In this document: positions 1 to 49,447 of the stretch, one piece after another | Layout: every line of letters starts with the position of its first letter | How positions within the stretch are numbered: position 1 is the stretch's first letter | Sequence record: MT764206.1 | From: Escherichia phage JEP6 | Strand: one strand, 5' to 3' | Length of the DNA stretch: 64,000 bases | Translations under genes and position numbers: made by a program | Notes under the pieces: model-generated | What the model was told of the DNA's origin: nothing | Seen by the model: the letters and a program-made list of their open reading frames with translations, nothing else | The model's database searches: none

Positions 1-587
1 AACCGCAACACATGGAATATTTTTAATGCTAAAATAAGGAGTAACAATACGGAATAATGACTTCAGTGATTTAGCACGAGTCATATCTGCCACAGATTTT
101 TCATTCAAGGCATCTTCCGTTTCTTTCTTAGAAGCCATATTACCAATTGAGTCGATGAATACAATAACCTTTTCACCACGCTCAATAGCTTCAAGCTGAT
201 TCACCATATCAATTTTCAGTTGTTCAACTGACTGGATTGGCGTATGAATTACTCGTTCTGGGTCAACTCCCATGGATCGCAAATAAGCTGGAGTAATACC
301 AAATTCGCTATCATAGAATAGACAAACCGCGTCAGGATATTTGTTCAAATATGCCGCAACCATAGTCAAAGACATATTTGATTTAAAGTGTTTAGAAGGC
401 CCTGCAAAAATAGTTAAACCAGACTGCATACCGCCATCAATCGCACCAGAAATAGCGATATTAAGCATTGGAATTTTTGTACGAATTACATCCTTTTCAT
501 TAAAGAATTTAGATGTAGTCAGCTCAGCAGTCATTTTAGAAGTGGAAGCTTTAATTAAACGGGATTTTAAATCTGCAATAGACATTC
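1..587 (-). CDS. uvsX: UvsX recombinase (RecA-like), N-terminal part; C-terminus lies beyond window start
   Basis: Reverse complement of 1-587 translates MSIADLKSRLIK...GPSKHFKSNMSL (P-loop); ATG at 585-587. Confidence 0.9.
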
Positions 588-662
588 ATTTTTTCCATAG
601 GCATCATTATATTTTCCTCACTGGTTAAAGATAGAGTAATTATAACACAATAAATTTAGGCA

Positions 663-1505
663 TTAATCAACTGCTATTGGATGAATAGCATTAAACTTAT
701 GAAATGCTTCTGATTTTTCTTTACGCGAAACACACATGCGAAGAACCTTTAGTGGTTCATCTTCTTCACCCAACGATTTTCGTTTTTCAATATTTGAAGT
801 TTTCCAACGAGCTTGCTCTGGAAACTCTCTATTGATTTGCTCAAGCGCTCTATTATGTTTAGAATTACTACGAATTGAACTACACCCACCGGGAGCGTGT
901 GATTTTCCAGATACAACTAGATATTTGAACAAGGCCAAATGCGGATAACCTTGATTAATTAAATTGAGAAATGCATACATATCTTCGCATAAATCAATTT
1001 TTCCATACCCAATTTGTTCTGTCGTAAGTTTTCCGAGGTCATACCATGTATTCGTGAATCCATATGAGTTTTCACGATAATTACCCCAAGATGAAGTAAT
1101 TTTAAAAATTGGTAGACGAGCATGACCGTGATAATACCCGCAATCCATGGCATCTTCAACGTATTGAATTAATTCATAGAACTGTTCACGAGTTAATTGA
1201 TTAATTTTATCTACACGCCGTTTATCGTCTCTCTTTCGTATTGAACTCATACGAATAGTAGTATCATCATCAATCATCCAGATTCGTTGACCTGCATACA
1301 TATCAGTAATTGCTTTACGAGTACCGGCAATTCCATTAACATCATCAGGAATAGTTACAATTTTAGCTCTAGACCCGTAAGCATCATAATAAGCTTTTTC
1401 TTCGTGTTCACGCACTACAATATGGGGTTCATAATCAGTCGGAAACATATTAAGGGCAGAAACTGCCCCTACACGCTGATAACTTGGAATTACGAATTGA
1501 ATCAT
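663..1505 (-). CDS. Putative DNA glycosyltransferase at the beta-gt locus (not the 351-aa T4 beta-gt; possibly T2/T6-type beta-glucosyl-HMC-alpha-glucosyltransferase)
   Basis: About 280 aa between uvsX and gene 42; IWMIDDDTT DXD-like motif; ATG at 1503-1505 overlaps gene 42 stop (ATGA); track start at 1511 is GTG. Confidence 0.6.
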   Translation of the reverse strand: MIQFVIPSYQRVGAVSALNMFPTDYEPHIVVREHEEKAYYDAYGSRAKIVTIPDDVNGIAGTRKAITDMYAGQRIWMIDDDTTIRMSSIRKRDDKRRVDKINQLTREQFYELIQYVEDAMDCGYYHGHARLPIFKITSSWGNYRENSYGFTNTWYDLGKLTTEQIGYGKIDLCEDMYAFLNLINQGYPHLALFKYLVVSGKSHAPGGCSSIRSNSKHNRALEQINREFPEQARWKTSNIEKRKSLGEEDEPLKVLRMCVSRKEKSEAFHKFNAIHPIAVD

Positions 1506-2242
1506 TTCCACTCACCGTTATAATCTTTTTTCACAATATGAGTTTCGCCAGTATTCCACCAATGATCAACCAAGTAAAAATGACGAGAATATACATGAAG
1601 ACTTCCAACATTCCATATAATAGAACCTGCTTTATACTGACGAGTTGAATCGCCTGCATTCAAATCAGATACTAATTTATCTAATACGTATTTTTGCCAT
1701 GCATAATCATTACGGAATCCGAAGACCACGTCATTTGAGCGCATGTTAACAACCGCATTGACTTTCTTATCACGAATCAGGTACTGTACTGTATTAGTAC
1801 ACATGAAATCTGACATACCATCTTTATTGTAGTCAAATTGCATGGATGGACGAGTATAAATCATGATACCACGTCGAGAATCAGGATTTTGACCAAGTTC
1901 AGCTAAACACATATCATACTGGGCATAGTTATCTTCTGACCAGATAGCCCAACCATAATTCGAGTTAATTTCACCTTTAGAAGATGCTACCTGCTGCCAA
2001 ATCTTCGGTGTTTCACCTGGAATATCTTTAACAAACAGACTTTGAGACTTATACCATTCAAGTTCACGCTGAATGTATTCATCATTAAGAGCGCCAAAAA
2101 TAAACGGTTCATCTGCTACAAATGATGCGCCAATAATTTCAATAGTTTTAACGCCAGTTTTATCAACTACGAAATCTTTTTCCTTTAATGCAAGCCCCAA
2201 ATGAAGACGGATTTCTTCAACTGTCATAGAGTCACTAATCAT
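1502..2242 (-). CDS. 42: dCMP hydroxymethylase
   Basis: 246 aa MISDSMTVEEIRLHLG..., near-identical to recalled T4 gp42 except the C-terminal residues; thymidylate-synthase fold family. Confidence 0.95.
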   Translation of the reverse strand: MISDSMTVEEIRLHLGLALKEKDFVVDKTGVKTIEIIGASFVADEPFIFGALNDEYIQRELEWYKSQSLFVKDIPGETPKIWQQVASSKGEINSNYGWAIWSEDNYAQYDMCLAELGQNPDSRRGIMIYTRPSMQFDYNKDGMSDFMCTNTVQYLIRDKKVNAVVNMRSNDVVFGFRNDYAWQKYVLDKLVSDLNAGDSTRQYKAGSIIWNVGSLHVYSRHFYLVDHWWNTGETHIVKKDYNGEWK

Positions 2243-2395
2243 TTAAACCTCAATTGATACATTCATATTTAACTTGTAACAGTAATAAACCCCAACCTAA
2301 AATAATAGTTGGAATCATAAGAGGAACCGTTACACTATAGTATATACTTATTATAACCATCAAGATTAAAAGCAATGCTGTTATAATTTTGCTTT

Positions 2396-2647
2396 TCATT
2401 CCTTCTCTCTGATGATAATTACCTGATTTGGCTGCGCAGACTTTTTAGTTTCACCCGCAATTGACCAAATAAATGTAATAAACCAACCAATAATTGACCA
2501 GTTAAACAGTAAAGATGTGAAAAAGATTCCTACTGTCGATTTTGACCCACGCATCAAGGCGATAAACCATGGAAGCATGTATATAATAATAGCCAACACG
2601 CCTGAAACTAAAACCATAAAAATTGAACCTGCTACTAAAGTTTCCAT
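2396..2647 (-). CDS. imm: Immunity to superinfection membrane protein
   Basis: 83 aa with two hydrophobic helices, at the position between 42 and 43. Confidence 0.7.
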   Translation of the reverse strand: METLVAGSIFMVLVSGVLAIIIYMLPWFIALMRGSKSTVGIFFTSLLFNWSIIGWFITFIWSIAGETKKSAQPNQVIIIREKE

Positions 2648-2654
2648 GTTTTCC

Positions 2655-3035
2655 TCACTTAGTCAAATTTTTTACACATGAATTATAAGAATTCACTACA
2701 TACTCCATCGGAGCATTTTTACCTGTACGCCATTGGTAATTATTAGCCCAATTTGCCCAAAGTTCTGCACAGTAGTTTTCAATTTTTTCTTCGCGTGTAA
2801 TTACATCCGAATTACGATATGCTTGAGCAGATTCATCTGGACGAATAGCTTCGTCAAAATTCGCCTGCATTTGTTCTACTGTCTGTTTTGGAGCTTCTTT
2901 ATAACACTTGACATTAGGATTATAAAATTTGCTTGAACAGTTTACAATTTTTCCTACATCAGACTGATTTACTACCGGTCCTTGAGCTACACAACCAGTA
3001 AGACCTAATGCAATAACCAAAATAGCGATTTTCAT
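2655..3035 (-). CDS. Predicted lipoprotein (imm.1 position)
   Basis: N-terminal MKIAILVIALGLTGC lipobox-like signal; 126 aa. Confidence 0.6.
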   Translation of the reverse strand: MKIAILVIALGLTGCVAQGPVVNQSDVGKIVNCSSKFYNPNVKCYKEAPKQTVEQMQANFDEAIRPDESAQAYRNSDVITREEKIENYCAELWANWANNYQWRTGKNAPMEYVVNSYNSCVKNLTK

Positions 3036-3045
3036 AATAATTTCC

Positions 3046-3303
3046 TCAAATACAAGTAGTAATTACTCCAGTAGTGCTTACACAGATATTACCTAATTGA
3101 ACACCCAGCGTTCCATTAGTATTCATATGAAGATTATCATCAATTTTTGTTGATACTTTACCATTCATGTGAATAACAGTATTAGATTCAATCACATTCT
3201 GAGTGTCATTTTCAATATCAATAAATGGAACAGCTGCTAATGCAACTAGAACAACTGCTAATGCAACTAAACACGCTGCTAAACAACCATAAACAATTTT
3301 CAT
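3046..3303 (-). CDS. Small secreted/membrane protein
   Basis: ATG at 3301-3303 with GGAGAAT SD; hydrophobic N-terminus; track start at 3315 is TTG. Confidence 0.5.
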   Translation of the reverse strand: MKIVYGCLAACLVALAVVLVALAAVPFIDIENDTQNVIESNTVIHMNGKVSTKIDDNLHMNTNGTLGVQLGNICVSTTGVITTCI

Positions 3304-3336
3304 TTTATTCTCCAAATCCGTATCAGTTGATAGTTG

Positions 3337-3367
3337 TATAGTACCATGGAAGAACAGGGATGTAAAC
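3337..3367 (-). promoter_or_regulatory. Early sigma70-type promoter (-35 GTTTAC, -10 box TGgTACTATA)
   Basis: Plus strand tatagtacca ... gtaaac; member of a repeated cassette. Confidence 0.6.
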
Positions 3368-3457
3368 GGTTTTGTGAAAAAATTTTTTTAATGAATTTAC
3401 AGGACCTAGAATCATCTGTTTTTCATAAGTATAGATTTATATTACTTGTATGAAAAA

Positions 3458-3473
3458 GGGACCCGGAGGTCCC
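3458..3473 (-). terminator. GC hairpin 3' of gene 43
   Basis: gggacccggaggtccc palindrome directly after the gene 43 stop codon. Confidence 0.5.
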
Positions 3474-3486
3474 TAGATTTATTCTA

Positions 3487-6183
3487 TCAGCCAAACAGGA
3501 AGTCTAACGAAGCTTTTTCTTCATAGTCCATGCCAGCCGATTCACACATACCTGCAAGCGGTTTAACAAACGATTTTTGGAACAAAGTTGAGTGGTCAAT
3601 CCAAGATAGCACATCAGAACGAATTTCTTTTGGAAGTTCTGTACCCGATGGCCAAGCAATGCACTTGTCACCAAATGGATTTCCTTCACGTAATGGAAGA
3701 ACCATTACTTTATTTCCATCCAAAATTGGAGCTACACCCAGACCACTAACAGCTCGACGATAAGTTAGCACACCGCGAATATGGAACGGGCATTTAAATC
3801 CTGGCCAACCTTTATCATCATATTTCGCTATATCGTTCGCAGTTTTTACTTCAGCAATAACTTTATAGTCAAGTTGACGATATTCTTTCTCGAAGTTCTT
3901 GTAGTATTCTTGGACAGACTCTTCACCTTCCTGAAGAATACGACGAATACTTTCTTCGAGAGCTTCTTGCACTGCTTTTGGTGTTGAACTCTGCTGAGTT
4001 TCCATACCCATGATTTTTAGATGCGGTTCAGCAAATCGTTTATCTTCCATATCATAAACGTTCAGAGCATAACGCTTTTTCGCTTTCCAAAATCCACCAA
4101 CACCCTTTGAACCAAGTGGAGGGCAAGAAATAGCTTCACGGTCCATATGCATCAGATGCTCGCGGTTATTCATATAATCACATAACTCACGATATGCAAC
4201 ATCAATCATAGGTTCCATCTTTTTCTTACCGAACTGATTCATGAATTCAACTAAATCGTTCTGCTCTTTGAATCGGTCAAGACCAACTTTTTCAATAACT
4301 TTATCTACACAAACATATACCGAATCAGTATCACCTGCTGCGATGAAATCTTCACCATTAGTTCCGCATACTTTATTCAGATATTCATTAATTTTACGAG
4401 CAATCCACTGAATACCAACTTGGCCGAAAATTGTGATAGCAGTAGCATTTCGCAAATCATAGTAACGGAAATGAATATTACCAAGAGCACCATAAAGACT
4501 GTTAATAAGAATTTTACGGTTCAGCTGATTTGTATTAGCAAGTGTAGCCGCTTTTTCACATTCTTCAATCAAACTATTGAGAACAGATTCGGTGTAATTC
4601 GACAGTTCATTTAAGAAATCATCACTGAACTTAACATATCGTTCAACTTCTGGTTTAGTTGAACAAGACCCTGCGCCTTTCATAATAATCTTTTTAATAG
4701 CTTCGGCATTCATTTCTTCAGCGAACATTTTCTTTTTCCAGTCTTTACGCTGGAAAAATACTTTAGCGATTTCCTTTGGAATGATACCTTCTTGATGCTT
4801 ATCATACATCCATCCATTCGGAGAACAAGAATATTCTTCACTTGGCTTAGGAGCTGTTCCTGCGATATATTCATGGATTGGATGAACTTTAAACTGCCCA
4901 CGAATAGTCTCAGGACTAATGTTAACCTGACGAATAATGCTAGGATACAGAGACGTCAAGTCAAAACTCATAATATATCGACGAGCAATTGGTTTAGGTT
5001 CAAACACAAATGCACCCGGAAAACTTTGTTTAACGTGCGAACCTTGTTGAGGAATAACCTTATGTTCACCTTTCAATGAGTTAAAAATAATAGCATCCCA
5101 AGTTTTAATAGGACTCATTACACCAGAAAAAGGCATTTTAGCATAATAAGACATACTTAAAACTAGATCGATAAACCCGCGAATTTTATCAATTGCTTGA
5201 ACTGATTCTACGTCAATGATGTTATAACTAATGTATCGTTGATGATTAGTCTCACGAAGTTTATTAATAGGACCATCGTACGGTAATTTACCTTTTTTGG
5301 TTTCATGTTGAGCAACTGATTCCAAAGAGAATGACGGCAAATTAGTAAATGCGAATTTCTTATACAAATCTAAATAATCAAGAATAGATACGCCATCAAT
5401 AGAATAAATTTCTTTGCTACCGTACACATTTTGAATTAGTTTAGATTTTACCCGACCAATTGGAGAGAAACGTTTCATACTGCGTTCACCGAGAACCATT
5501 TTAACGCGATTCATGATATACGGAACGTCAAATCCCTCAATATTCCAACCAGTAAAAATAGCAGGTCGTTTCTGTTCCCAGAGATTGATATATTCCATGA
5601 GCATATCACGCTCATTATCGAATGGCATATAAATTACTCGGTCAAGAATTTCTTGAGGAACTTCATCACCACCTTCACAGTCAAGCTTAGCAGCTAACTT
5701 TGCATCCCATTTTGATACTGAACCGTACATTGAATTCAAAAGGTCGAAAACATAAAAACGATCGTCAATTGAATCATAATGAGTGATAGCATCAATTTCA
5801 TATTCTGCTTTCATTGGGTCAGGAAATTTATCGCCAGTAACCTCAATGTCACAGTTAGCTACACGAACAAATTTTCGGTCATAAACAATTTCTGAACCAT
5901 ATGTATCACTGATATAAGCGAGTTTAAAATCGTTCATACCGAGAGCTTCGAGACCGATGTCTTCCATTCGCTTCATCCAATCTCGAGCATCTTTCATTGA
6001 TGGAAATTTTTGAGGAGCGCAATTTTTACCATAGATGTCTTTATATTTTGACTCTTCCTTACAATGCCTAAACATAGTTGGAAGATATTCTACTTCACGA
6101 GTACGTTCCTTTCCGTTTTCATCAATATAACGTTCAACAATGTTATTTCCGACTGTTTCAATAGAGATATAAAATTCTTTCAT
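3487..6183 (-). CDS. 43: DNA polymerase (family B) with 3'-5' exonuclease
   Basis: 898 aa MKEFYISIETVGNN...; motifs CDIEVTG (exo I), DLTSLYPSII (pol A), AAGDTDSVY (pol C). Confidence 0.97.
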   Translation of the reverse strand: MKEFYISIETVGNNIVERYIDENGKERTREVEYLPTMFRHCKEESKYKDIYGKNCAPQKFPSMKDARDWMKRMEDIGLEALGMNDFKLAYISDTYGSEIVYDRKFVRVANCDIEVTGDKFPDPMKAEYEIDAITHYDSIDDRFYVFDLLNSMYGSVSKWDAKLAAKLDCEGGDEVPQEILDRVIYMPFDNERDMLMEYINLWEQKRPAIFTGWNIEGFDVPYIMNRVKMVLGERSMKRFSPIGRVKSKLIQNVYGSKEIYSIDGVSILDYLDLYKKFAFTNLPSFSLESVAQHETKKGKLPYDGPINKLRETNHQRYISYNIIDVESVQAIDKIRGFIDLVLSMSYYAKMPFSGVMSPIKTWDAIIFNSLKGEHKVIPQQGSHVKQSFPGAFVFEPKPIARRYIMSFDLTSLYPSIIRQVNISPETIRGQFKVHPIHEYIAGTAPKPSEEYSCSPNGWMYDKHQEGIIPKEIAKVFFQRKDWKKKMFAEEMNAEAIKKIIMKGAGSCSTKPEVERYVKFSDDFLNELSNYTESVLNSLIEECEKAATLANTNQLNRKILINSLYGALGNIHFRYYDLRNATAITIFGQVGIQWIARKINEYLNKVCGTNGEDFIAAGDTDSVYVCVDKVIEKVGLDRFKEQNDLVEFMNQFGKKKMEPMIDVAYRELCDYMNNREHLMHMDREAISCPPLGSKGVGGFWKAKKRYALNVYDMEDKRFAEPHLKIMGMETQQSSTPKAVQEALEESIRRILQEGEESVQEYYKNFEKEYRQLDYKVIAEVKTANDIAKYDDKGWPGFKCPFHIRGVLTYRRAVSGLGVAPILDGNKVMVLPLREGNPFGDKCIAWPSGTELPKEIRSDVLSWIDHSTLFQKSFVKPLAGMCESAGMDYEEKASLDFLFG

Positions 6184-18457: not shown

Positions 18458-18928
18458 TTAATCATGTTTCCACACCCCATCGGTATTTGACCAAAGTCGC
18501 TGATTATCTGATCCTCGCCACAACTTTTTAGTCGGAAGATTTTTCTCATACTTCCCATCAATAATAACATCAACATATTTAAGCATTTCTAGTTGTTTAA
18601 TATCTTCAAACTTATATCCTGTCCACAACCAAATGCTTTTATTGGGATAAAGATTTTTAATAGTTTGAACCACAGAGTGAATCACGTCTCTGTTATCAGG
18701 ATAAAGAGGGTCACCTCCAGTTATAGTCAATCCTTCTATATAATCATTATTCAAACATTCAATTAATTGCTCTAGTGTTTCACCAGTGAATGGAATACCA
18801 TTTCTAGCATTCCATGTTGATTTATTATAACACCCTTCGCATTTATGCAAACATCCAGTAACAAAAAGAACGGTCCTGCACCCAGGACCATTAACAAAAT
18901 CGCAAGGATAAAATCTATCATAATTCAT
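18458..18928 (-). CDS. nrdG: Anaerobic ribonucleotide reductase activating protein (radical SAM)
   Basis: CxxxCxxC cluster CLHKCEGC; 156 aa. Confidence 0.9.
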   Translation of the reverse strand: MNYDRFYPCDFVNGPGCRTVLFVTGCLHKCEGCYNKSTWNARNGIPFTGETLEQLIECLNNDYIEGLTITGGDPLYPDNRDVIHSVVQTIKNLYPNKSIWLWTGYKFEDIKQLEMLKYVDVIIDGKYEKNLPTKKLWRGSDNQRLWSNTDGVWKHD

Positions 18929-20205
18929 TGGTGTTTAACCCTATGCATGATTTCTTTATTTTTACCGAGATTAAATCCGCGTTCGTTCGGATTTCCCAAA
19001 TAACCACATGTTCTTCTTATTGTGTTCATCTTTTTAGGATCAGTTTCTCCACAAATAGAACAAACAAATCCGTTTTCAGTAGGAGTCATTTCATGGGTGC
19101 TTCCGCATGTAAAACATTTATCTACTGGCATATTAACACCAAAATAATCTAAATGTTGTGCAGCATAATCCCATACGGCCTCAAGACCTTTTAAGTTATT
19201 TTTCATATCAGGAAGTTCAACATAAGAAATGTGACCACCTGTCGCAATGAAATGATATGGCGCTTCACGAGAAATCTTTTCAAACGGAGTAATATTTTCT
19301 TCTACTGAAACATGGAAACTATTAGTGTACCAACCTTTATCGGTAACATCTTTTACGCTTCCATATTTTTCTGTATCAAGTTTACAGAAGCGATAACAAA
19401 GGTTTTCAGCAGGAGTCGAATATAAACTAAAAGCAAATCCGGTTCTTTCAGTCCACTGTTTAAGATGGGCATTCATTTTAGTTAAAATTTCCTGTCCAAT
19501 ATCACGACCGACAAGAATATTCAATTCATGAATACCAATGTATCCTAAAGACACTGAACTTCTACCGTTTTTAAATAACTCAATTATGTCGTCATCAGGT
19601 TTAAGACGAACCCCAAATGCACCTTCTTGGTAAAGAATAGGAGCAACAGTCGCTTTAACTCCTTTTAAGGAACTAATTCTACACATCAAAGCTTCAAAAC
19701 ACAAATCCATTCGTTCATTGAATAATTCAACAAATTTCTGTTCATTGAACTGTGTTCCAATATAAGAATCTAACGCGATGCGAGGAAGATTCAATGTTAC
19801 AACACCAAGATTATTACGTCCATCAAGAATTTCATTGCCAGTCGAATCTTTCCATACGCTCAAGAAACTACGGCAACCCATTGGAGAAACAGGAACAGAT
19901 GAACCAGTGATAGCTTTATTATTCTTAGCTGAAATAATATCAGGATACATCCTTTTGCTTGCGCACTCTAGAGCAAGCTGCTTAATATCATAGTTCGGAT
20001 CGTCTTTGTAAAGATTAACACCTTCTTCAACAAACATAACAAGCTTAGGGAAAATAGGAGTTATCCCATCACGACCAAGACCTTTAATACGATTTTTCAG
20101 AATTGCTTTCTGAATCATTCGTTCAGTCCAGTCAGTTCCCGTACCAAATGTAATTGTTACAAAAGGCGTTTGTCCGTTTGAACTAAAGAGAGTATTTACT
20201 TCATC
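18925..20205 (-). CDS. nrdD: Anaerobic ribonucleotide reductase, exon 2 (approximate 5' boundary)
   Basis: Glycyl radical motif RRTCGYLG and Zn ribbon CFTCGS...CSICG; the ORF's first ~17 codons are probably intron. Confidence 0.85.
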   Translation of the reverse strand, partial: DEVNTLFSSNGQTPFVTITFGTGTDWTERMIQKAILKNRIKGLGRDGITPIFPKLVMFVEEGVNLYKDDPNYDIKQLALECASKRMYPDIISAKNNKAITGSSVPVSPMGCRSFLSVWKDSTGNEILDGRNNLGVVTLNLPRIALDSYIGTQFNEQKFVELFNERMDLCFEALMCRISSLKGVKATVAPILYQEGAFGVRLKPDDDIIELFKNGRSSVSLGYIGIHELNILVGRDIGQEILTKMNAHLKQWTERTGFAFSLYSTPAENLCYRFCKLDTEKYGSVKDVTDKGWYTNSFHVSVEENITPFEKISREAPYHFIATGGHISYVELPDMKNNLKGLEAVWDYAAQHLDYFGVNMPVDKCFTCGSTHEMTPTENGFVCSICGETDPKKMNTIRRTCGYLGNPNERGFNLGKNKEIMHRVKHQ

Positions 20206-21249
20206 ATTATATTCAGCATGAGTCGCAAATTCATGCCCGTTTATATGAAACAACAAAATTTGGATAGTCCATAGATATGCAACGTTCTTTTATAGTGCTA
20301 GGATGAAAATTTAGCGCTTTAGCTGCTTCTATATAAGACGTATACTTAATACCGTCAACAACCACATATTCAGGAACTTTATGAATAGTAGTCTTAATAC
20401 TCAAAACAAGAGGATGAGTTTCGACTTCACTTTCAGTGCAATTTAAATATTCCGCTGCTTTTTTAAAACTTCTAAAAGTTTTATTTTTAAGCTTTATCGA
20501 TACTTGTTTTTTACTTTTTCGACTATTGATATTATTTTGCACATGTTCCTTAGATCTTCCGTTTTTAGCATAATATTCAGCTACAGAAGATTTTATATTG
20601 TTTTTATGAGATTCGGATAACACTTTACCCTTATGAGCATCTCTTAATTTTTGAATATGTTCTTCAGTATCCGGATGCTTATAAAACTTTTTACCGCCTA
20701 TGGATTTATTTAAACATTTTTTGCTATAAAAATATTTACGTATGACCTCTTCTTCATGTTTTAATGCATCTTTATAACTATCAAATGTTTTTAAAATTAT
20801 CCATTTAGTAGGTGTATCAGTTTTTAAGCGTTCATTTATATACTTAGATGACGTTGTGTAAGTTTTCCAGTTTGTGGGCTTGTTTTTAATTGTTCTAAAT
20901 TTTTTATAACCGATATAAATGTCGCCATTAGAAAACTTAACTAAGTATGTAAATGCGTCTTTATCTTTTATTTTAGTACAACGTCTTTTTATCCATTTCA
21001 TTGTTTCACCTCGTATTCATAAGATAATCTTATTTATACAAGATGACTGCTGCATGTCGCCATGCAGATTAGACTATATCTTCATCTTTCGATGCCGGCC
21101 GTTTCGAATAGCATTAGCTTCTATTCTACACCGCTACATTCATCACGGTTAGTCGTTAGGCATTTAGTTCAAAAGAACATTTAGCACGGGATTGTCTACT
21201 AGAGAGGTTCCCCGTTTAGACCGGTTTTACATGAGCCTGAATTAAATTA
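20206..21249 (-). mobile_element. Group I self-splicing intron in nrdD (boundaries approximate) carrying a homing endonuclease ORF
   Basis: nrdD reading frame interrupted; about 250-nt structured non-coding core at 21002-21249 followed by the endonuclease ORF. Confidence 0.8.
20231..21001 (-). CDS. GIY-YIG homing endonuclease (I-TevII-like) encoded within the nrdD intron
   Basis: AFTYLVKFSNGDIYIGY GIY-YIG motif; basic C-terminal DNA-binding region. Confidence 0.85.
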   Translation of the reverse strand: MKWIKRRCTKIKDKDAFTYLVKFSNGDIYIGYKKFRTIKNKPTNWKTYTTSSKYINERLKTDTPTKWIILKTFDSYKDALKHEEEVIRKYFYSKKCLNKSIGGKKFYKHPDTEEHIQKLRDAHKGKVLSESHKNNIKSSVAEYYAKNGRSKEHVQNNINSRKSKKQVSIKLKNKTFRSFKKAAEYLNCTESEVETHPLVLSIKTTIHKVPEYVVVDGIKYTSYIEAAKALNFHPSTIKERCISMDYPNFVVSYKRA

Positions 21250-21787
21250 ACTCATACGCCTGAAACGCGTCGTATACGTCTTTTTCTGTTTTAGATTGGG
21301 CATAATTCAACGCATCAGCGATTTGCCATTTTTCTGCATCCTCAATATGTTTTGCATAGGTGCGTTTAACATATGGAGAAAGTACTTTATCTACATTCGC
21401 AAAAGTCGTTCCGCCATATTGATGAGAAGCAACCTGTGCAGTAATTTGTGCCATAATTGCAGTAGCAACGCCGATTGATTTAGGAGTTTCAATCTGCGCA
21501 TTACCGAGCTTAAATCCGTTTTCAAGCATTCCTTTTAAATCTACTAAACAGCAATTAGTAAATGGAAGAGCAGGGGAATAATCAATATCATGGAAATGGA
21601 TAATTCCGCTTTCATGCGCTTTCATAATAAAAGACGGGACCATATTTTTGGCAATGTGTTTAGACACAATACCAGCCATAAGGTCCCGTTGAGTTGGAAA
21701 AACACGAGAATCTTTATTAGCATTCTCGTTTAAAAGGTCTTTATTAGTTTTATGAATCAATCCTTCAATTTCTTTTTCAATTGTCAT
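21250..21787 (-). CDS. nrdD: Anaerobic ribonucleotide reductase, exon 1 (approximate 3' boundary)
   Basis: MTIEKEIEGLIHKTNKDLL... N-terminus; ATG overlaps the gene 49 stop. Confidence 0.85.
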
Positions 21788-47489: not shown

Positions 47490-47790
47490 CTTGCGGCAAC
47501 CTTGTCGGGGTTCCACCTGCTAAGGCAAGTGTTTGTACGAAACGCCGGGATTCGAACCCGGTTATTAAGTAGTTGACGCTACTCAATATTTTTAAAAGGC
47601 CATATCTCGACCATATCCGAACGTTCCGTCAAAAACGCTACTCGGCTTATGGCAAAGATATTTCCTCGAATCGATAATTCGGTGCGCCGTTTCTGCTGTG
47701 ATGTAAGAGGGCATCAATAAACGTAAAGATTATTAACGCAATTCCTTACTCAGGGAACATCAGTCCGACGACTTACCGGTAGCGACCCGG
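47490..47790 (-). ncRNA. Small stable RNA region (rnaC/rnaD-like) with tRNA-like 3' domain
   Basis: No ORF; T-arm-like CCGGGTTCGAATCCCGG on the transcript at about 47546-47565; ends at a terminator. Confidence 0.4.
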
Positions 47791-48163: not shown

Positions 48164-48240
<77 letters not shown>

Positions 48241-48243
48241 TAA

Positions 48244-48909
48244 TTAAAATTTCATTTTTCGACCTTTAAACCATCCTTCTGGAATTGGGTCAGTTTTCTT
48301 AATACGTTTAGAAACTTTTTCATCTAATGAATGAATCCACATCATACCAAATTGGGAATTCTTTTCGCCCTGTTGGTGTTTATTTCTGGCGTGAGATTCT
48401 TTCATTTTATTAATAGTTTCAGGAGTATGATGCTTATTTAAAAATCTGCTATTATTTAAAAATTTTTCCCTGTATTCAGGAGTTGACCACAAGCGTTTAA
48501 ATACATTTGAACCATGTTTACGATATTTTTCTTGAAGTAAAATATCATTTTTAAAACGTGACTTAAACGATTTAGCTCCTTTTAAACTAGCGTCTTTCTT
48601 CTGGTTTAGCATCCCAGGAATATTTATATGATCCCATCCACCTTCACCACCTAATTTCAAATTATAAACATCAGGGCGCTTTAAAAACTCTTCAGTCACA
48701 ATATTCTTTTCTGACTCAAACATAGAGGTTTTATCGTCAAAGAACTCTAATATTTCTTTAGAAAAATTTTCTATACCATACTTATCTTGGGCTCTTTTTA
48801 ATAATTTACCAGAACCCATATATCCATCATCTAAATTTTCGGTAGAATGCACACCAATATAAATTTTATTATTAATTTTATTTGTTATTTTATAAGTGTA
48901 ATGGAACAT
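48244..48909 (-). CDS. segB: GIY-YIG homing endonuclease (SegB-like) in the tRNA cluster
   Basis: HYTYKITNKINNKIYIGV GIY-YIG motif; 221 aa. Confidence 0.8.
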   Translation of the reverse strand: MFHYTYKITNKINNKIYIGVHSTENLDDGYMGSGKLLKRAQDKYGIENFSKEILEFFDDKTSMFESEKNIVTEEFLKRPDVYNLKLGGEGGWDHINIPGMLNQKKDASLKGAKSFKSRFKNDILLQEKYRKHGSNVFKRLWSTPEYREKFLNNSRFLNKHHTPETINKMKESHARNKHQQGEKNSQFGMMWIHSLDEKVSKRIKKTDPIPEGWFKGRKMKF

Positions 48910-48950
48910 AAATATCTCCTATTTCTAAGAGTATTTATGTTCCCAAAATA

Positions 48951-49022
48951 TGGCCCTGGGTGGAATTGAACCACCATCTGGCGATTATGAGTCGCTTGCT
49001 TGAACCTTCCAGCTACAGGGCC
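48951..49022 (-). tRNA. tRNA-Ile (anticodon CAT, presumably lysidine-modified)
   Basis: Perfect 7-bp acceptor GGCCCTG/CAGGGCC; T-arm GGTGG-TTCAATT-CCACC; anticodon loop CTCATAA. Confidence 0.7.
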
Positions 49023-49028
49023 TTGATA

Positions 49029-49101
49029 TGCTGATTGACGGAATCGAACCGCCGACGTCCTCATTACAAGTGAGGTGCTCTACCTACTGAGCTAAATCAG
49101 C
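49029..49101 (-). tRNA. tRNA-Thr (anticodon TGT)
   Basis: Acceptor GCTGATT/AATCAGC; anticodon loop CTTGTAA; T-loop GGTTCGATTCC. Confidence 0.8.
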
Positions 49102-49108
49102 GAAATTA

Positions 49109-49195
49109 CGGAGGCGATAGGATTTGAACCTATGAGTCGCCGGAGCGACTGCCGGTTTTCAAGACCGGTGCATTAAACCACTCTGCCACGCCTCC
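49109..49195 (-). tRNA. tRNA-Ser (anticodon TGA), long variable arm
   Basis: Acceptor GGAGGCG/CGCCTCC; anticodon loop CTTGAAA; 87 nt. Confidence 0.8.
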
Positions 49196-49197
49196 AG

Positions 49198-49271
49198 TCT
49201 CCGTGGCAGGATTTGAACCTACGACATTCTGCTCCCAAAGCAGACGCTCTACCAAACTGAGCTACACGGAG
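49198..49271 (-). tRNA. tRNA-Pro (anticodon TGG)
   Basis: Acceptor CTCCGTG/CACGGAG; anticodon loop TTTGGGA; T-loop GGTTCAAATCC. Confidence 0.8.
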
Positions 49272-49281
49272 TAAATTAAAT

Positions 49282-49355
<74 letters not shown>

Positions 49356-49360
49356 AAATT

Positions 49361-49447
49361 TGGTGCGAGAAGTGGGACTCGAACCCACAAGGAAATCATT
49401 CCGCAGCATTTTAAGTGCTGTGCCTTTACCAATTTGACCATTCTCGC
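49361..49447 (-). tRNA. tRNA-Leu (anticodon TAA), long variable arm, CCA encoded
   Basis: Acceptor GCGAGAA/TTCTCGC; anticodon loop CTTAAAA; T-loop GGTTCGAGTCC. Confidence 0.8.

Follow-up and report, generated by a model that had tools for sequence, protein, structure and literature searches.

Gene Content of the nrdD Locus

The window, by which we mean the whole 64,000-nt stretch analyzed here, carries on its minus strand nrdG (18928–18458), a split nrdD, and the endonuclease VII gene gp49 (22257–21784), in the same order as in phage T4. A 24-kb stretch spanning this locus is 95 to 98% identical to hundreds of Tequatrovirus genomes, and this match, together with the T4 gene order, identifies the window as part of a T4-like phage genome (Tequatrovirus). 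The nrdD stop and nrdG overlap by 4 nt (window positions 18925–18928), and the nrdD–nrdG boundary is without a free-standing endonuclease gene; T4 has mobC there and T6 has segH. Elsewhere in the window, seven tRNA genes are clustered on the minus strand at 48164–49447 (Arg-TCT, a CAT-anticodon tRNA, Thr, Ser, Pro, Gly, and Leu), an arrangement likewise found in T4-like phages; T4 itself has eight tRNA genes, tRNA-Gln included, and no tRNA-Gln gene was found between window positions 47500 and 50000.

The first part of nrdD is an ORF of 181 aa (21787–21242) that covers Pfam NRDD positions 1 to 141 and ends ...DAFQAYELI at a UAA codon (21244–21242). The frame resumes within a 443-aa ORF (20256–18925) that covers NRDD positions 145 to 562 plus Gly_radical and contains ...EYNDEVNTLFSS. 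Between the 181-aa ORF and exon 2 lie 248 nt without any ORF (21249–21002), followed by a 256-aa ORF (21001–20231). A first-pass annotation of this DNA had described the stop and resumption of the NrdD frame, about 250 nt of noncoding sequence, and the 256-aa ORF, and each of these is present. It had also reported a 26-nt overlap of the endonuclease ORF with the exon-2 frame, for which the arithmetic holds (20256–20231) but which is a mere mechanical extension of that frame upstream: exon 2 starts only at 20204 and so lies 26 nt downstream from where the endonuclease stop codon ends (UGA, 20233–20231), with no coding sequence common to the two proteins. The interrupting element is a group I (IA2-type) intron of 1045 nt (20205–21249; minus strand), flanked by nrdD exon 1 (21250–21787; minus strand; 538 nt, comprising 179 codons and the first base of Tyr180; Pfam NRDD, E = 1.2e-40) and exon 2 (18925–20204; minus strand; 1280 nt including the stop codon), the first letters of which are AUGAAGUAAA.

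The Intron Encodes a Homolog of I-TevII

The 256-aa ORF (20231–21001; minus strand) is wholly intronic and occupies intron nt 249 to 1019, about three-quarters of the element and not only the 3′ half to which it had been assigned. Its product is a predicted homing endonuclease homologous to T4 I-TevII, with a SegE-type GIY-YIG domain and a NUMOD1 module. The two proteins align end-to-end (256 versus 258 aa) with 144 of 257 positions identical (56%; E = 1e-101), and the sequence exceeds the Pfam cut-offs for both PF19835 SegE_GIY-YIG (26.6 bits; cut-off, 25; E = 7.4e-6) and PF07453 NUMOD1 (25.3 bits; cut-off, 22.8). PHROG 314 (homing endonuclease) matches as well (3.6e-29), and NCBIfam and PDB sequence searches with the endonuclease returned no match. 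The catalytic residues of I-TevI are Y6, Y17, R27, E75, and N90. In a 25-sequence alignment that includes I-TevI, the window residues Y19, Y29, G31, and E83 never vary, and N98 is nearly invariant. The initial assignment to the GIY-YIG family therefore holds, on the I-TevII homology, the PF19835 score, and conservation of the GIY Tyr, the YIG Tyr/Gly, the Glu, and the Asn. An AF2 model built from a three-sequence alignment is poor (mean pLDDT of 57) and has a β-β-α-β-α order over residues 16 to 90; a Foldseek search of the PDB with this poor model gave nothing at E < 1, the best nonsignificant matches including UPF0213 proteins and Slx1.

A word-indexed search of a 5.8-billion-protein database retrieved just two clusters (90%) at E ≤ 0.001, one of the window type with 64 member sequences and one of the T4 type with 38. 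An exhaustive profile search retrieved 944 more distant relatives; PF19835 was matched in all 10 of those scanned, in nine of them above the cut-off, with NUMOD3 or I-TevI DNA-binding modules often found alongside. Beyond the two clusters, the same search returned three full-length relatives of less than 50% identity (P0003, P0004, and P0007; E from 3e-42 to 7e-22).

Upstream of the endonuclease ORF lies a T4 late-promoter consensus, TATAAATA (21031–21038; minus strand), and record OL960581, which is 99% identical, has a late promoter annotated at this position. A hairpin (21006–21046; minus strand) is positioned to sequester the ribosome-binding site (RBS): its 11-bp stem pairs UCAUCUUGUAU (21046–21036) with AUACGAGGUGA (21016–21006), the latter of which contains the Shine–Dalgarno sequence GAGGUGA (21012–21006). 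The region 21070–20985 folds at −27.6 kcal/mol in RNAfold (z = −5.96), and none of 200 shuffled sequences folds as well. The 5′ arm of this hairpin runs into the promoter at its 3′ end, and late transcripts should accordingly be without most of the arm. In T4, the intron endonucleases are described as combining a late promoter with an RBS hairpin (PMC2988022), and by analogy the window allele would share this arrangement for late expression: in the early nrdD pre-mRNA, the endonuclease Shine–Dalgarno sequence would be locked in the hairpin, whereas transcripts from the internal promoter TATAAATA would be without most of the 5′ arm, with the result that the endonuclease would be made late. We also compared the homing site (−10 to +10) with the RBS region of the endonuclease gene (20995–21030; minus strand). 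The best match, 14 of 20 positions, was reached by 22 of 500 shuffles, a resemblance too weak to claim an I-TevI-style operator in the promoter–RBS region.

Degenerate intron endonucleases are common among T-even phages (PMC2988022), and the intron might splice while its endonuclease is a decaying passenger, comparable with I-TevIII in T4, in which case the element would no longer be mobile. The window endonuclease indeed falls short of the generic Pfam GIY-YIG model PF01541 (10.3 bits; cut-off, 22.6), and the position of the I-TevI Arg27 is occupied by Asn44. The same position is Asn in T4 I-TevII, however, and that enzyme is classed as an active GIY-YIG intron endonuclease (PMC2988022). Moreover, the window ORF is full-length relative to I-TevII; its promoter, Shine–Dalgarno sequence, and regulatory hairpin are intact; and the intron is 99.7 to 100% identical across Tequatrovirus and Mosigvirus in exons that differ by 4 to 8%, which argues for recent active spread. 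We therefore regard a decaying passenger as improbable and favor an endonuclease that would still be active.

The Group I Ribozyme Core

A local scan with lax filters matched Rfam model RF00028 at 21285–21050 over all model positions 1 to 253 (E = 1.1e-17), its 70.9 bits being well above the gathering score of 50; for the T4 nrdD intron, this model gives 105 bits. A scan of the whole window at gathering thresholds returned only tRNAs and not the group I intron, which was missed because of the speed filters and is found when a 1.3-kb region is scanned locally, a point that matters to annotation pipelines that rely on the default scan.

The catalytic core (21050–21224; minus strand) comprises helices P3 to P9, the strands of which we verified base by base. 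P3 (21224–21219/21100–21095) encloses P4 (21215–21210/21191–21186), P5 (21205–21203/21197–21195), P6 (21185–21184/21161–21160), and P6a (21178–21175/21170–21167), followed by P7 (21154–21150/21076–21072), P7.1 (21149–21146/21133–21130), and P7.2 (21126–21121/21111–21106); P8 (21094–21091/21086–21083) and P9 (21067–21061/21056–21050) complete the core, all on the minus strand. A putative P10 of just 4 bp (UUCA/UGAA) was identified by eye. Introns of subgroup IA2, which include those of T4 td, nrdB, and nrdD, carry two additional helices, P7.1 and P7.2, which come after the 5′ strand of P7 and before the 3′ strand of P3. Both are present here, and helices 7 and 8 have two and five covarying pairs, respectively.

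We examined covariation in a core alignment of seven phage introns, namely, the window intron and those of T4 nrdD, a Vequintavirus nrdD, two Justusliebigvirus nrdD genes, an Aeromonas phage terminase gene, and an ORF-less td. MAFFT misregistered P7.1 of T4, P7.1 of HMD-9, and the terminal hairpin of T4, which we verified manually and by RNAfold. Unaided, RNAalifold recovered P3, P4, P5, P6/P6a, P7.1, P7.2, P8, and P9. When P7 was added as a pseudoknot, giving 47 pairs, 97.5% of the cells were paired, compared with 31 to 42% in slid-partner controls; 21 of the 47 pairs have compensatory double changes, and the covariation score was reached by none of 500 shuffles. Covariation is present in P3, P4, P5, P6a, P7.1, P7.2, P8, and P9 and is uninformative on P7, because P7 is invariant in the alignment.

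The 3′ end of the intron is also structured. A terminal hairpin (20215–20237; minus strand) consists of GGCAUGA, the loop AUUUGCGAC, and UCAUGCU, which form 7 bp in RNAfold. Hairpins occur in the same place in the introns of T4 nrdD (GGUAGAG/CUCUACU) and the ORF-less td (GGAUAAG/CUUAUCU), with the inner pairs fully compensated. The endonuclease stop codon (UGA, 20233–20231) sits within the 5′ arm of this hairpin, whereas in T4 it is in the loop, and the window endonuclease is 2 aa shorter for this reason. The conserved 3′ tail, GAAUAUAAUG (20205–20214; minus strand), ends in the terminal G20205 directly before the 3′ splice site, and the motif UGAAYAYAWUG terminates all five related introns aligned.

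Splice Junctions and the Predicted Spliced Product

P1 (21231–21255; minus strand), read from the sequence, pairs the end of exon 1, AUGAGU (21255–21250), with the internal guide GCUCAU (21236–21231), and its U21250·G21236 pair marks the 5′ splice site directly after U21250. Colinearity with intron-less alleles fixes the 3′ splice site directly after G20205, so that the last base of the intron is G. Removal of 21249–20205 gives a reading frame of 1818 nt that encodes a 605-aa NrdD, with GCGUAUGAGU predicted to be joined to AUGAAGUAAA (RNA, ...UAUGAGU/AUGAAGU...). A 400-nt query across the spliced junction aligned in one piece over all 400 nt with the best intron-less records and was at least 80% covered in 630 intron-less nrdD records. 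Base-level alignments with the intron-less T6, VEc74, HP3, SHFML-11, and teqskov have no gap at the junction, and the intron-less alleles examined, as well as T4 NrdD, read ...AYEYEVNTL... without insertion. The boundaries cannot slide, because the opening bases of the intron (U) and exon 2 (A) are unlike, as are the closing bases of exon 1 (U) and the intron (G). The correct annotation of nrdD is thus a join of 21787–21250 and 20204–18925 on the minus strand.

The first-pass annotation had proposed that nrdD is split by a group I intron, and this is borne out by an RF00028 score above the gathering score, by core helices that are recovered on folding and 97.5% paired, by P3–P9 covariation, by homology to the T4 intron, and by a spliced sequence that is colinear with intron-less nrdD. 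Its view that the splice junctions are ambiguous is refuted, since the U·G pair of P1, the terminal G, and gap-free colinearity with intron-less alleles leave a single junction; the extent that it gave (20206–21249) is exact at the 5′ end and one base short at the 3′ end, where G20205 belongs to the intron.

Many GenBank records list the two nrdD halves as separate CDSs, and the case for splicing of the window allele is one of sequence homology. It could accordingly be asked whether the insertion no longer splices, such that nrdD is a pseudogene or yields two polypeptides, comparable with the mobE-split nrdA of phage Aeh1. The real exon 2, however, has neither a start codon nor a Shine–Dalgarno sequence at 20204, and the 443-aa ORF is opened by a TTG inside the intron, within the endonuclease gene. 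A pseudogene is at odds with strong purifying selection on both exons: compared with spliced T4 NrdD, the 605-aa NrdD has two residue changes (F65V and Q417R), against 55 nucleotide differences. Finally, the core helices are all intact with compensatory changes and score above the RF00028 gathering score, and both G20205 at the intron end and the U·G wobble in P1 are present. Loss of splicing is thus very improbable, and on the same grounds we reject intein, split-gene, and pseudogene readings of nrdD. Another in-frame junction, with the 3′ site after ...GCUGAAU at 20211 and Asn-Asp added to NrdD, is suggested by arithmetic and by the similar look of GAGU and GAAU but is excluded to near certainty, because U and not G would precede it and T4 NrdD and all intron-less alleles examined are without the insertion; in addition, four related introns have 3′ ends that line up with the ...AUG/...UUG of the 3′ tail.

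Relationship to Other Phage Introns

The group IA2 intron of T4 nrdD (sunY) and its endonuclease I-TevII have been known since the 1980s, and this intron is among the founding examples of introns in bacterial viruses. By every testable criterion, the window element belongs with it and is predicted to work like it. Both interrupt the same gene at the identical site, which follows nt 538 and falls in the codon for Tyr180 (exon 1 of T4 nrdD is also 538 nt in the alignment), and both have the same P1 (AUGAGU/GCUCAU), a 5′-terminal core that is compact at about 200 nt, with the endonuclease ORF downstream of P9, a 3′-terminal hairpin followed by the UGAAYAYAWUG tail, and endonucleases homologous over their full length. 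The regulatory logic of a late promoter and an RBS-sequestering hairpin would also be the same, for the window allele by homology. The two introns are 66.3% identical over 1025 columns, and the ends of the window intron match the implied T4 boundaries (T4 gene positions 539 and 1571). The differences lie in length (1045 nt versus 1033 nt in T4), in the sequences of P3, P6a, P7.1, P7.2, and P8, which are compensated, and in the degree of divergence, the exons being about 97% identical (55 differences in 1818 nt) and the intron just 66%. The T4 version is experimentally proven, whereas the window version is known from its sequence: self-splicing and mobility have been established for the T4 nrdD intron, whose endonuclease I-TevII is of the GIY-YIG type (PMC2988022, PMC1865063).

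Three further systems are related in part. The td intron of T4 and other T-even phages (I-TevI) has the same IA2-type core and 3′ tail, is 100% identical to nt 30 to 71 of the window intron in T4, and likewise encodes a GIY-YIG endonuclease; it differs in host gene, P1, and P2 and in the placement of its ORF, which is in P6a rather than after P9, and I-TevI is just 20 to 24% identical, approximately, to the window endonuclease. The second nrdD intron of Vequintavirus (e.g., JEP1) has a core 82% identical to that of the window over 90% of its length, compared with 74% for the T4 nrdD core. Its host gene is also nrdD, but the insertion site is another one, and its endonuclease is of the HNH type and encoded in the P6 region between the core halves, unlike the GIY-YIG ORF after P9 in the window. 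The JEP1 nrdD itself (532–4214) is divided into three parts, apparently by two insertions, and this group I intron with the HNH ORF is the second of them. The SegE-like endonucleases of T4-like phages, finally, share the PF19835 catalytic family and NUMOD-type DNA-binding modules with the window endonuclease; Seg enzymes are free-standing between genes, whereas the window endonuclease is intron-encoded.

The affinities of the core (here, 21050–21249; minus strand) change along its length. P1 is T4-nrdD-like (28 of 32 positions), P3 to P6 are td-like (45 of 48 and 27 of 27 relative to phage HMD-9, whose td intron is without an ORF), P7.1 is identical to that of the Vequintavirus JEP1 nrdD intron (23 of 23), and P7.2 and P8 are unique. 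This mosaic may reflect a natural exchange of domains between phage introns, the alternative being uneven conservation. Bryk and Belfort reportedly obtained domain shuffling between phage introns in the laboratory in 1990, and to our knowledge it has been seen only there.

Distribution among Phages and Patterns in the Flanking Exons

Among the phage records searched, the window-type intron is present in about 43 GenBank records at 99 to 100% identity (100% in SP21535 and JM10) and the T4-type intron in about 25; 630 are intron-less at the site. Window-type carriers are found in both Tequatrovirus and Mosigvirus. Across carriers, the flanking exons are 92 to 96% identical to those of the window and mosaic near the junction, and a near-identical intron (99.7–100%) in such diverged exons is the footprint that would be expected of recent homing with variable co-conversion. 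The G at position −2, which completes P1, is present in all six carriers examined (four other window-type alleles, T4, and the window) and is A in five intron-less alleles. On the exon-1 side (21250–21270; minus strand), the window has synonymous changes of its own at −20, −17, −11, and −8; directly downstream of the junction, exon 2 is identical to intron-less T6 over 150 of 150 positions. On this exon-2 side (20175–20204; minus strand), the tract from +14 to +29 is a different one in other carriers, and T4-type and window-type alleles differ at +8, +11, +14, +15, +17, and +20. Exact-pattern scans of IMG/VR for the window-type 5′ junction and for an intron-less allele with the window exon-1 flank found nothing, and co-conversion was thus examined on a handful of GenBank records.

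Discussion

Taken together, these analyses indicate that the nrdD gene of this T4-like phage is very probably interrupted by a mobile, self-splicing IA2 group I intron at the same site as the T4 nrdD (sunY) intron. From homology to T4 we infer how the window allele would splice, that its endonuclease would be active, and when it would be expressed, as follows. The pre-mRNA would fold into P1 to P9, and a free guanosine bound at P7 would attack the phosphodiester after U21250, presented by the U·G pair of P1. The freed 3′-OH of exon 1 would then attack after the terminal G20205, and ligation of ...GAG U to AU GAA... would yield ...AYE-Y-EVNTL... and the full 605-aa NrdD. The endonuclease, in turn, would cut the intron-less nrdD of co-infecting phages near the insertion site, and double-strand-break repair would copy the intron and co-convert the flanks to a variable extent. 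The cut made by T4 I-TevII lies 13 to 15 nt downstream of its insertion site.

The element is already known: identical GenBank copies are annotated as a split nrdD with a “homing endonuclease” or “intron-associated endonuclease 2.” What the exact junction offers is a correction of the nrdD annotation, as most records, and any ORF caller, divide nrdD into two “genes” and miss the 605-aa product.

The only angle that is modestly new is the sister lineage with its mosaic core. We tentatively suggest, at somewhat less than even odds, that T-even phages harbor two deeply diverged nrdD intron/I-TevII lineages at one site, of which the non-T4 lineage is the commoner (about 43 versus about 25 records and 64 versus 38 member proteins in the collection searched) and has a ribozyme that is a natural mosaic. 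A literature search found no paper on a second, non-T4 nrdD intron lineage, an absence that is not proof that it is undescribed. An endonuclease that is 56% identical to I-TevII might also differ from it in target tolerance. If true, the mosaic ribozyme would be an example from the field of domain shuffling between phage introns. The sister lineage and its mosaic core are modest additions, though usable ones, to the data on recombination and spread of phage introns.
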